38,884 nt of DNA from the IMG/VR virus record IMGVR_UViG_2728369182_000009; one strand, 5' to 3'. How positions within the stretch are numbered: the stretch's first letter is position 1; the number at the start of each line of letters is the position of its first letter. A program made the position numbers. This stretch comes from a virus. Its lineage: Duplodnaviria > Heunggongvirae > Uroviricota > Caudoviricetes. Positions 32,901-35,900 of the stretch are shown here, in pieces.

Positions 32901-35900
32901 ATCATTGATGCAACAAGCTGGCGATTGGCTCACTGGTGGTCAAAGTGCAGGGCAAATTGCGGAACAGGCTGGTCGTGGTCTGGTAAACATACCATTTGAC
33001 GTATTGCAGGGCGGCGCAAGTCTGATTAATGCAATCAGCCAGGGGCTTGGTGGCCCCAAGGTTTTGGACGATGTCTATCGTCCAGTCGATCGACCAACAG
33101 ACCCTTATGCGCAAGCTGGAGAAACAATTGGCGGGTATTTAGTTCCAGGAGTTGGAACGGCAGGAAGCATGGCTATTGGATCACTGGCAGAGGCCGCAAA
33201 TCAGAAAGGCGATTTCGCACAAAATGCAGCTAAAAATGCCGGAGTTAACCTTGCCGCTCAGGGGGTTCTTTCCGCAGCAGCAAAGGGAATAGGGCGTGGA
33301 ATAACGGCTATAAAAGGTGATATTGCGCCAGAAGTGGCGAAGAAAATTGCCACATCAGAATCGATGGGCGTGACACCAATGACATCTGATGTTATCACGC
33401 CGAAAAATGCTTTCACTCGCGGCCTAACTCAGGATGCCGAGGGGGCTTTGCTCGGGACAGGCTCAAAGCGAGCGGAGCAATATGCAACGCGTAGTAAGCT
33501 GGTAAGTAATTATTTTGACCGTTTTGGTGAGTACAACCCTGATGATGTGGTGAAATCTCTTACCACCACGTTAAGGGGGCGGAAGGATGCCGCTGGCGCT
33601 GTTATCAATGACGTCACCAATAAAATGGGTAATGCCGCAGTTGATACCACAAATACCATGAATGCTCTGAATACAGCGATCGCAAGACAGGAACGGCTTG
33701 GGACGTCTGCCAATCAAAGCCTGCTTACATCCTTGCGTAACCTACGTGAAGAATTAGCAAACCCTGCAACTGATTTGGATGTTACGTTTGATCTCTTGCG
33801 TCAGCACAGAACAGCATTTAGATCTAATGTTCAGGGAGATGCTATGGTCTTCCCAAACCAGGCAAAAGCAGCTACCAATATGGTAGAGAATGCAATGTCA
33901 AAAGATCTTCGTAACGCAGTTGCAAAAAACCTCGGTGCATCAGACGCAGCAAAATACCTTAAAGCAAATTCCGATTATGCAAACGTTTATAATAAGGTGC
34001 TTAATAAAAACATTGCTAACAAGCTCAACAAGGCAAGCAGTGAAGCCAGTCCTGAACTTATAAATACCGTTGTATTAAGCAGAAAACCATCTGACGTGAA
34101 ACGAATCTGGAGCGCATTGGATAATAAAGGGAAAGATGCTATGCGTGCAGCTTATGTCAGCAAAATAGCGGAAAAGGCCGGTGACTCTCCAGCCAAGTTC
34201 ATCACTGAAGTTAATAAGCTGAAATCTCAGTCAGGCGGTGAAATTTACAACACTATTTTTTCTGGAAAGCACATGAAAGAGCTTGATTCTCTTCATGAAG
34301 TTCTACAGCAAACAGCAAGGTCAGACACCGCAAATGTAGTAACTCAGACGGGGCAATCGCAAGCCAACAGGATAAGGACGATTGGCGCAACTGCGACTCT
34401 TGGCGTATCAATGGGGCTTGAGGCTGGTTTCGGTGCAATGATGCGCTTGTATGAGTCAAAAGCAGCAAGGAATGCTCTCTTACGTTTGGCAAACACCAAA
34501 GCAGGAACACCAGCCTATGAAAGAGCGCTAAATAATGCTGCAAATGCGATACGCCCTATACTTTCAAGCCAAATTACAGCAGAACAGCAATAAAAATAAG
34601 ATATAACTATCTGATATTACTGCTACTGTTGCATGTTACCGTGTTTCCAAATCCTGAATTGCAGTTTGTATATGTGTCAACGCGTGTTGGGTAAGGTTGA
34701 GTTATAACAGGCTGGCGCGCTTTTTGCTCGATCGCTTGCATTGTGTTTACAGCCTGATAATTCAATAAAGCCTGCTGGAATGCTTGGCTTTGTGCTATTT
34801 GTTGTGCTTGTTCTTGGCTTTGTAATTGAACATAAAGATTCTGAAGTTCAAGTCTTGCCTGTGTGTCACTTATCTTGCCTTCATCGACACCTTGCCCGAG
34901 CATCTTCGCAGCAAGGACATACAGCTTAGGTGTTGGTGCTGATGCCATGCGAGAGTCGTTCTTCAAGCTGGCATCAAGGCAATTAGCCATATCGCTAAGC
35001 TTTGGATAGCGTTGCTCGCAACTTGCCTGATAGTCGCTTACTTTTGCGCACCCAGCCAGCAGAAGCGGGATAATTAACAGTGATTTTTTCATATAATTAA
35101 CTCTCCTTAGTTTTGCGCAGGATACCATGAAAAAAGTTAACATTGGAAACGTACCAAAGATGCTCGTTCCGCTCTTTGAGAGCGGTACAATTGTGTTTTG
35201 TAGAGACTTTCCAGAATGGCAACGCCTGCATCAAAAACTTGGCGTTGACGTGCATGACTCGGACGCCAACGGAGCGTCTCATACAATGAGTAGCGAGAAT
35301 GGTGTTTTGCATGTGATAGGCGTGTTCAATGGCAAACTATCTACTATTGCCCATGAGTGCGCTCACATGGCATTCGATATCTGCTCAAGGGTAGGTGTTG
35401 ATGTTGAACCAGGAAGAGCCAACGAGACTTACTGCTACTTAATGAGCAGGCTTGTTGAGTTCTGCGAGCGACATATCAAAAAGCCGGAGTGACCCGGCTT
35501 GATTATTACTTTTTGCTGTCTGGAGTTCGCTTATCCAATACCCAGCCATGACCTGGCTTTGTTGTTGGTGGAAGCCTTTCGTTGTCCTTGACGGTTGCAA
35601 AATTGTCTTTCTTACCGCCGCGTGGGCCAACTTCTTGGTATATTCCGCCGTTTTTTCCTGTGTTTTCACCTGGTTTTTTCGCCATGATATACCTCAACAT
35701 ACACCCGTTATTGGGCGATTAAATATTGATCTCATTTTATAAGTAGTCAATATGGCCCAGGTAAATGCAAAAATTAACCCACCTTCAGGTGGGTTTTTTG
35801 TACAAATCCTTCAGCGTATCAAACACCATCTTCTTAACAAGCTCTGACTGCTCATCAGCGATGCGTTCCGCATCGTCTCGATAGCCTGAAATTTTGGATG

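Follow-up and report, generated by a model that had tools for sequence, protein, structure and literature searches.

We analysed the accessory interval between the homologues of gene 16 (ejection protein) and gene 9 (tailspike) in the viral DNA IMGVR_UViG_2728369182_000009, a stretch of 38,884 nucleotides (nt; hereafter the window) that is a nearly complete P22-like (Lederbergvirus) genome of the Escherichia coli type. In this interval a lipoprotein gene appears, from sequence comparison, to have replaced sieA and nothing else; the two small genes beside it, hkcC and orf59a, coexist with sieA in related elements. Three unrelated open reading frames (ORFs), namely sieA, hkcB and the lipoprotein gene, would in this way have been plugged in behind one promoter and one ribosome-binding site. 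The region itself, which an earlier note on this DNA had taken to be undescribed, was already on record: the gene 16-to-gene 9 interval has been named the 'ant moron', with hkcC and 59a as named genes (Villafane et al. 2008, PMC2629481; HK620 annotation, Clark et al. 2001). The region and two of its three genes are thus known, the lipoprotein is uncharacterised and largely an ordinary prophage accessory gene, and what remains is the swap of sieA for that gene in a conserved expression socket within a documented variable region. The interval lies between gene 16 and gene 9 homologues and contains mnt, and we read it as the left half of the hypervariable ant moron, here in an E. coli prophage. 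For this explanation as a whole, including the functional proposals made below, we put the chances slightly above even.

The common socket was seen in an alignment of four minus-strand upstream regions, those of the window lipoprotein gene, P22 sieA, HK620 hkcB and a sieA gene in an E. coli prophage. The first 100 nt (window 35101-35200, minus strand), with the Shine-Dalgarno sequence AAGGAG, are identical in all four apart from two positions; the identity runs through the Shine-Dalgarno stretch CTAAGGAG and the sequences diverge immediately after it. The swapped segment extends from just past the stop codon to just past the Shine-Dalgarno sequence, and this places the new ORF behind the upstream region of sieA. 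The socket DNA doubles as the antisense of the 5' coding region of hkcC (its first third), and the annotated putative PsieA of P22 corresponds to window positions 35127-35157. A single copy of sieA with 85 base pairs (bp) of upstream sequence gave full exclusion, and in RNA sequencing (RNA-seq) data cited by the same authors sieA was low in lysogens and went up on induction (Leavitt et al. 2024, PMC10883804). Because the upstream sequences are identical, we infer that the lipoprotein gene is under the same regulation as sieA. In phages ST160 and SE1, about 380 bp without an annotated gene lie between gene 16 and hkcC (positions 2151-2527 of the extracted ST160 locus); this gap may be an empty or decayed slot.

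P22, with the ant moron order sieA-hkcC-orf59a-mnt-arc-ant, and HK620, with hkcB-hkcC-hkcD, carry their genes at the same gene 16/gene 9 position as the window, and share with it hkcC, orf59a, the bidirectional terminator, mnt and the upstream sequence of the slot gene with its Shine-Dalgarno. What differs is the slot gene, the one that directly follows gene 16 on the opposite strand: sieA in P22, hkcB in HK620 and the lipoprotein gene in the window. Among phage records, window positions 35099-35883 matched P22 at 97.3% identity by megablast, and with blastn the P22 match spanned 35103-36036 at about 92-97% identity. The lipoprotein unit (34608 to about 35116-35131) instead matched phages Gally and vB_EcoP-720R6 (94.7%) and Salmonella phage VSe13 (90%), and in these three phages the lipoprotein gene has different right-hand neighbours. 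Proteus phage Brookers carries a 54%-identical lipoprotein copy directly adjoining mnt.

Gene orders in bacterial genomes are similarly mixed. E. coli O104:H4 C227-11 has gene 16, the lipoprotein gene, a gene for a secreted protein of 104 amino acids (aa), mnt, arc, ant and gene 9, in that order; E. coli O26 RM10386 has gene 16, the lipoprotein gene, an mnt-like gene and gene 9; and E. coli FDAARGOS_1251 has gene 16, sieA, hkcC, orf59a and mnt. The HkcC and Orf59a proteins of FDAARGOS_1251 have the same accessions as those of the window-identical prophage in strain Ecol_881. Even the type of gp16 is uncoupled from the slot gene. The window gp16 (615 aa; gene at 32746-34593, plus strand, the left border of the interval), a gene 16-type ejection (DNA transfer) protein, is 74% identical to P22 gp16 at the aa level and 97.5% identical to the gp16 of a sieA-carrying E. 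coli prophage, where it adjoins sieA, whilst the lipoprotein gene elsewhere adjoins gp16s that are 34-35% identical to that of the window. The earlier note had placed all three small genes where P22 carries sieA. P22 itself has both the 121-aa ORF and orf59a beside sieA, so that of the three the lipoprotein gene alone takes the position of sieA. The three genes thus appear to be independently inherited units rather than one module, and their alternating strands, with a terminator between two of the three, suggest separate transcription units.

The presence of the three ORFs, their motifs and their tight spacing were all confirmed from the sequence: the divergent start codons of the lipoprotein gene and hkcC are 34 bp apart (35093-35126) and the convergent stops of hkcC and orf59a 13 bp apart (35493-35505). 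All three look like real genes, with homologue families that carry conserved motifs and with ratios of non-synonymous to synonymous substitution (dN/dS) of 0.04-0.15, which for the two short genes rest on only 5-7 substitutions. For the lipoprotein, this range came from four pairwise comparisons and indicates a gene under purifying selection.

The lipoprotein gene occupies 34607-35092 on the minus strand; the ORF call matches phrog_6067 and the same coding sequence (CDS) is called by PGAP. The mechanical ORF extends over 34607-35143, and the resulting 178-aa reading from an ATG at 35143 was dropped, since both PGAP and the family alignment begin at the ATG at 35092, giving a product of 161 aa that starts MKKSLLIIPLLLAGC. 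Its signal peptide ends in the lipobox LLAGC (MKKSLLIIPLLLAG-C15), which conforms to the lipoprotein pattern [LVI][ASTVI][GAS]C and is followed by Ala at +2, and some database records label the slot gene 'lipoprotein'. Under the +2 rule for Lol sorting in Enterobacteria, Ala at this position predicts transfer to the outer membrane. The protein would accordingly leave the cytoplasm, receive its lipid at Cys15, be sorted to the outer membrane and form disulfide bonds in the periplasm. Homologues with 50-97% identity were found in E. coli, Citrobacter, Serratia, Cronobacter, Klebsiella aerogenes, Pectobacterium, Yersinia, Morganella, Providencia and Tatumella. The 29 homologues aligned span ten genera of Enterobacterales and conserve the lipobox and Cys residues; Cys15 is invariant among them and nearly invariant in a wider set of 45 sequences.

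The protein consists of an N-terminal helical domain with the invariant pair Cys25/Cys38, a Gln-rich helix and a C-terminal hairpin with a second Cys pair, and contains 12% Gln, so that its earlier description as a Gln-rich lipoprotein with paired Cys holds. The AlphaFold model has a helical bundle at residues 18-95 (predicted local distance difference test, pLDDT, 80-88); the long helix and the beta-hairpin that come after it are of low confidence (overall pLDDT 66.7). A fold search with the model returned generic helical bundles only.

Profile searches with the lipoprotein found no match in Pfam, NCBIfam, PADLOC or the sequences of the PDB. Against 1.84 billion representative sequences, the profile retrieved 238 clusters (at 50% identity), 94 of them at E <= 1e-10. 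Most of the 238 are lipoproteins of 125-140 aa with the N-terminal domain in common, and the clusters examined individually also share the C-terminal 'T.NC...GN...C..Y' hairpin. None of the 45 family members scanned fell into a curated family. The lipoprotein thus appears to belong to a widespread proteobacterial lipoprotein family that is uncurated. The earlier statement that none of the three proteins has a nameable family therefore stands for the lipoprotein, but not for the 121-aa protein, which is HkcC, or the 59-aa protein, which is Orf59a/HkcD and YjzC-like. Matches to Cor (phrog_1119, E = 0.092, residues 1-29) and to Rz-like spanin PHROGs were rejected, as they covered the signal peptide only. 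Signal peptide or Cys content is also apparently responsible for the matches of 1-5 distant relatives to TraV, RcsF and type VI secretion system immunity lipoproteins (NCBIfam, E about 0.003-0.007). PADLOC-DB defence models gave 0 families at E <= 1 for all three proteins of the interval, and in Pfam and NCBIfam the one usable match among the three was the sub-threshold YjzC match described below. A literature search turned up no work on the function of the lipoprotein, HkcC, Orf59a or YjzC.

Phage records with the lipoprotein family are few (5 of 50,697) and all are P22-like. The distant members lie in varied surroundings: two are still in the P22-like gene 16/mnt context, one is on a contig with a small terminase gene, one is in an integrase/DUF3987 element, and two have the chromosomal neighbourhoods considered below. 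These last two hint that the phage lipoprotein was recruited from a cellular lipoprotein family curated by no database.

Expression of such a slot gene can be followed in published RNA-seq of E. coli LF82, which carries the prophage Gally (PMC9928086, tables S1/S4). GALLYPH_13 of Gally is a 97.5%-identical orthologue of the window lipoprotein gene. Its expression, as log2(fpkm+5) (fpkm, fragments per kilobase per million), was 6.0-6.3 in stationary phase in LB medium (BLB), 7.9-8.2 in the B1 and B6 samples, 10.3 in the MB1 samples, whose label follows the pattern of MB6, and 8.5-8.7 in macrophages 6 h post infection (MB6), whilst the adjacent Gally ejection-protein genes stayed at 2.3-4.1 throughout (PMC9928086). 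Between MB6 and LB stationary phase, the log2 fold change of GALLYPH_13 was 2.55 (q = 4.7e-27; PMC9928086). GALLYPH_13 is up where the late ejection genes are silent, and its transcription in lysogens therefore does not depend on the late operon. By analogy, and given its socket, the window lipoprotein gene would be active in the prophage at a time when the late genes are off. At the position of hkcC, Gally (OV696608) has a second, unrelated lipoprotein gene (139 aa, lipobox LLSGC, positions 3120-3539 of the extracted locus, plus strand), which outexpresses the first in LF82, with log2(fpkm+5) of 9.8-11 outside LB (PMC9928086).

We favour a reading in which the slot gene is transcribed in the prophage from the sieA-type upstream region and the lipoprotein works in the envelope to exclude superinfecting phages. 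This is the most likely function in our analysis, at a probability that we would nevertheless place somewhat short of even. It is favoured because the occupants of the slot and the interval are envelope proteins and because an exclusion RNA of phage BTP1 comes from the same interval. SieA is polytopic, the 104-aa protein of the O104 strain has a signal peptide, and the second gene of Gally encodes a lipoprotein; HkcB has an N-terminal hydrophobic, transmembrane-like stretch by eye, with no 19-residue window at Kyte-Doolittle 1.6.

P22 SieA (types A-C, inner membrane) and the lipoprotein share the socket and the orientation, both are envelope proteins, and expression from the prophage is expected of both. 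SieA is polytopic, however, with several transmembrane helices and an FxRYPxEAxxFNK motif (PMC10883804), whereas the window lipoprotein has no sequence similarity to SieA, does not contain this motif in its 161 aa and lies in a different PHROG/Pfam space. Nor does it look like a polytopic inner-membrane protein with 3-4 transmembrane helices, judging from the 54%-identical Brookers homologue that was scanned: this has no 19-residue window at Kyte-Doolittle 1.6, whereas P22 SieA has three hydrophobic blocks. The mature part of the window lipoprotein has a grand average of hydropathy of -0.56. With only a cleavable signal peptide and a soluble helical domain, the lipoprotein would have to act from the outer membrane or the periplasm. 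Two routes to exclusion could then be envisaged: it might interfere with the conduit that the ejection proteins of P22-like phages form across the periplasm, as SieA does from the inner membrane, or it might mask an outer-membrane component.

Lipoproteins with exclusion or conversion roles are familiar from other phages, and include Cor (phi80, N15 and HK022), Llp (T5), Ltp (TP-J34) and Bor (lambda). Ltp blocks DNA injection, whilst Cor and Llp block the receptor FhuA. The window protein resembles these in being a small phage or prophage lipoprotein with a lipobox that would be made outside the lytic programme, which makes for a plausible analogy; it differs in that no homology to any of them was found. 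A more specific proposal, which we regard as tentative, is that it represents a new exclusion class, in which a periplasmic lipoprotein anchored in the outer membrane blocks the gp7/gp20/gp16 DNA conduit, is interchangeable with sieA and hkcB, and derives from the uncurated family of 238 clusters. If the lipoprotein does exclude phages, it would offer a second, mechanistically distinct handle on the assembly of the P22-like periplasmic DNA-delivery channel. In that case the uncurated lipoprotein family, which occurs in about 3% of complete E. coli genomes, would also have its first assigned function. How SieA interferes with this channel was left open by Leavitt et al. (2024, PMC10883804).

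Several observations weigh against the exclusion reading and the expression scheme around it. No relationship could be detected between the lipoprotein and SieA, Cor, Llp, Bor or any of the defence-system models. Two of its distant relatives sit in ordinary chromosomal neighbourhoods, one (positions 6001-6426 of its extracted locus) running from uvrC to bio genes and the other, in Pectobacterium peruviense (locus positions 6001-6411), from dsbB/holE-like genes to ycgN-minCDE, and such contexts are as compatible with a cellular function in the envelope as with an anti-phage one. In LB, GALLYPH_13 was 4.5-fold above the prophage median (PMC9928086), and Gally was reported to be without morons because this falls just under the authors' 5-fold cut-off. 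The strongest expression of GALLYPH_13 was inside macrophages, which points towards host adaptation. The upstream sequence of Gally also differs from that of the window beyond about 35116, so that its expression transfers to the window by analogy only. Finally, the late read-through proposed below for hkcC is deduced from orientation alone.

Much of this bears on the main rival to an exclusion role, in which the lipoprotein is a lysogenic-conversion or host-fitness factor. Located in the outer membrane or the periplasm, it would benefit the lysogen inside an animal host or during envelope stress, much like lambda Bor or the lysozyme-inhibitor lipoproteins, and would have been borrowed from a chromosomal family. 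We think this possible but unlikely. GALLYPH_13 is induced in macrophages and low in LB, as set out above, distant relatives occur in housekeeping chromosomal contexts, and the gene is common in pathogenic E. coli, being found in O104:H4, in O26, in a window-identical ST131 strain and in the adherent-invasive strain LF82. However, the macrophage induction is not gene-specific, as mnt, the tailspike gene and the rest of Gally's right end respond in the same way. The gene also occupies exactly the socket that serves a proven exclusion gene, and more divergent copies keep the gene 16/mnt context in P22-like elements. No similarity was found to Bor, PliC/MliC, LprI or DUF1311; the earlier note had suggested a DUF1311/LprI-like protein, and a PF07007/LprI-like match was not found.

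The second gene of the interval, hkcC (35127-35492, plus strand), encodes a 121-aa protein with 99.2% aa identity to HkcC of HK620 (AF335538, where it is annotated 'unknown'), and it matches phrog_1365 over residues 1-121 (E = 1.7e-39). In P22 an intact hkcC ORF (13861-14226), also 99.2% identical, has no CDS in BK000583 or NC_002371, where promoter and terminator features alone are annotated. HkcC has no signal peptide. Its HECAH motif lies at residues 76-80 (35352-35366) and an Asn-Glu-Thr motif at 99-101 (Glu100 at 35424-35426). A set of 19 homologues and 7 distant ones, down to 30% identity, keep H76, E77, H80, N99, E100 and T101 without exception, and the motif-bearing homologues come from phages of Salmonella, E. 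coli and Pseudomonas. The AlphaFold 2 model (pLDDT 89.3; predicted template modelling score 0.83) has the topology strand-strand-helix-strand-strand-helix-helix, in which H76, E77 and H80 lie on the predicted helix 71-88 that carries HExxH, and the invariant E100 stands 20 residues after H80, at the start of the predicted helix 100-116. A Glu 20 residues past the second His is the spacing of thermolysin-type gluzincins, and we treat it as a lead only. Small zincin-like peptidases (SprT-like/Wss1-type, ImmA/IrrE M78 and minigluzincins) likewise have an HExxH helix after a beta-sheet and then a helix with an invariant Glu, as predicted here for HkcC.

With Foldseek, the HkcC model matched 26 phage proteins in BFVD at E <= 1e-3 (template modelling scores of 0.54-0.82). 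The few named ones are 'SprT-like family protein' and 'SprT-like', with a 'Metalloprotease' just above the cut-off (E = 1.3e-3). A profile search of the HkcC family against PDB sequences gave nothing significant, and lantibiotic matches (E 0.03-0.14) were rejected as chance, lying around a Cys/His stretch. On its motif and fold, HkcC is probably a zinc-binding, peptidase-like cytoplasmic protein. A doubtful alternative is that it is not an enzyme: either the protein would be a small regulator or adaptor in which HExxH binds a metal for structural purposes, or the ORF would be kept mainly for its overlap with the promoter of the slot gene. The paralogues keep all six invariant residues at unrelated positions without the sieA promoter, the catalytic-type Glu of HExxH is invariant and not just both His, and the fold matches many small phage proteins, some of them annotated SprT-like or metalloprotease; all of these argue against it.

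In its genomic distribution, HkcC is conserved from P22 to N4-like Pseudomonas phages and has been unstudied since it was named in 2001. Paralogues with 30-40% identity, gene 70 of epsilon34 and Orf129 of L/ST64T, lie between the lysis genes and Dec or terminase genes, and homologues follow the lysis genes in lambdoid mEp phages (e.g. mEp044) and occur in the N4-like Pseudomonas phage phCDa (positions in the extracted loci: epsilon34 2501-2890; mEp044 2501-3085; phCDa 2465-2827). Several Salmonella P22-like phages have two hkcC copies each. The paralogues also occupy late-operon positions. Given the late-operon orientation of hkcC, the upstream intergenic space of only 34 bp and the variable sequence beyond it, the simplest inference is that hkcC is probably made by read-through of the late operon. 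It would then be a late cytoplasmic product with an HExxH...(19 residues)...NET motif on a beta-sheet/two-helix fold. A perfect TATAAT stands at 35092-35097 (plus strand), 30 nt before the hkcC start, and overlaps the start codon of the lipoprotein gene. It was not counted as an hkcC promoter, having no recognisable -35 and not being conserved in P22.

The third gene, orf59a (35506-35685, minus strand; phrog_3202 match), corresponds to P22 Orf59a and encodes a hydrophilic 59-aa protein with 32% Gly+Lys and a pI of 9.9. The HK620 equivalent, annotated 'may encode HkcD' (positions 2880-3059 of the locus extracted from AF335538), has an in-frame stop at codon 18 and is a pseudogene, and hkcC is intact there. 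Orf59a scored 19.4 bits against PF14168 (YjzC; E = 0.0013), below the gathering cut-off of 25 bits. Its homologues, aligned over the full length, are named 'YjzC family protein' in UniRef or carry PF14168; the core motif KPG...G.YQEVGPRGG...LPPT is common to Orf59a and the PF14168-bearing proteins, with P5, G6, G14, E18, G20, P21, R22, G23, T31 and P39 invariant. Orf59a thus has the length and core motif of the YjzC-like family, which is widespread in bacteria, with a score below the cut-off, and we would class it as a YjzC-like cytoplasmic protein. A profile search against PDB sequences and a literature search found neither a structure nor a functional study for Orf59a/YjzC.

Transcription of orf59a was considered with its neighbours. 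The gene follows mnt on the minus strand, and its 3' end is at a GC-rich hairpin (35481-35500; -12.1 and -12.6 kcal/mol, z -3.4 and -2.7) that lies between the convergent genes, overlaps the hkcC stop codon, and is the 'bidirectional terminator tORF59A' of HK620 and the annotated mnt terminator of P22. A second hairpin stands at the 3' end of mnt (35776-35795; -14.8 kcal/mol, z -2.9). The promoter-like element that the earlier note had assigned to the 59-aa gene does exist between this second hairpin and orf59a (TTGACT-17-AATATT, 35750-35722, minus strand), but it is no better than chance: the search found 1 match, against 3.3 in shuffled sequence. As shuffled sequence gives more matches, we put no weight on it, and the match is no evidence on its own. 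Orf59a is probably made with or just after mnt in lysogens, from a transcript that would end at the bidirectional terminator.

Two other readings of the interval fare much worse. In one, the functional slot product is an antisense transcript that silences gene 16 or the late mRNA of incoming relatives, and the lipoprotein ORF is secondary. The precedent is STnc6030 of BTP1, an RNA antisense to the gene 16/tailspike junction that is made in lysogens and gives immunity to superinfection by BTP1 (Owen et al. 2020, PMC7067206); it comes from the same P22-like interval and is transcribed against the late operon. The slot gene stops 13 nt short of the gene 16 stop and no terminator-like site was detected in this gap; its transcripts may therefore enter gene 16 in antisense. 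STnc6030 is a non-coding RNA, however, whereas the window product is a conserved protein under strong purifying selection, as its dN/dS indicates, with a lipobox and Cys residues invariant across genera, in a family that reaches far beyond phages. The same protein is also found beside gp16 genes only 34% identical, which an antisense RNA could not serve. We consider this reading highly improbable.

The other reading is that of the earlier note, which saw the three genes as one compact cassette, an undescribed exclusion or anti-defence module that fills the sieA/immI slot as a unit. The tight spacing in a known accessory hot spot and the fact that the function of all three genes is unknown might be taken to favour it, but the same spacing is found in P22 with sieA, hkcC and orf59a occur at 97-99% identity beside sieA (P22 and E. 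coli prophages) and hkcB (HK620), and the strands alternate in units split by a terminator. Of 5,426 complete E. coli genomes, 298 matched the three-gene stretch in some part and 186 had the lipoprotein gene, usually without the other two; all three were contiguous in just 19 of these 186. These co-occurrence counts largely refute the cassette, to which we give next to no weight. The location itself is a genuine P22-like accessory hot spot, and an exclusion or conversion moron is a reasonable hypothesis there for the lipoprotein alone, if not for a three-gene module. The socket is a tidy example of plug-in exchange of accessory genes and a practical guide for mining exclusion genes.

On the right of the interval, mnt (35785-36036, minus strand) encodes an 83-aa Arc/Mnt repressor (Pfam Arc 2e-22, Repressor_Mnt 2e-18). 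It is an orphan that adjoins the tailspike gene: the window ORF list shows neither arc nor ant in the space between the two, and arc, sar and ant are absent, unlike in P22. This space does hold a perfect palindrome, GACCACGGTGGTC (36100-36113), that is similar to the Mnt operator of P22, GGTCCACGGTGGACC. The orphan mnt and this operator-like palindrome may control read-through or a promoter towards gene 9. The tailspike gene (36184-38175, plus strand; gene 9 homologue, PGAP 'phage tailspike protein') is the right border of the interval and has 37.7% G+C compared with 46.5% for the window, a difference suggestive of a receptor-binding module acquired recently.

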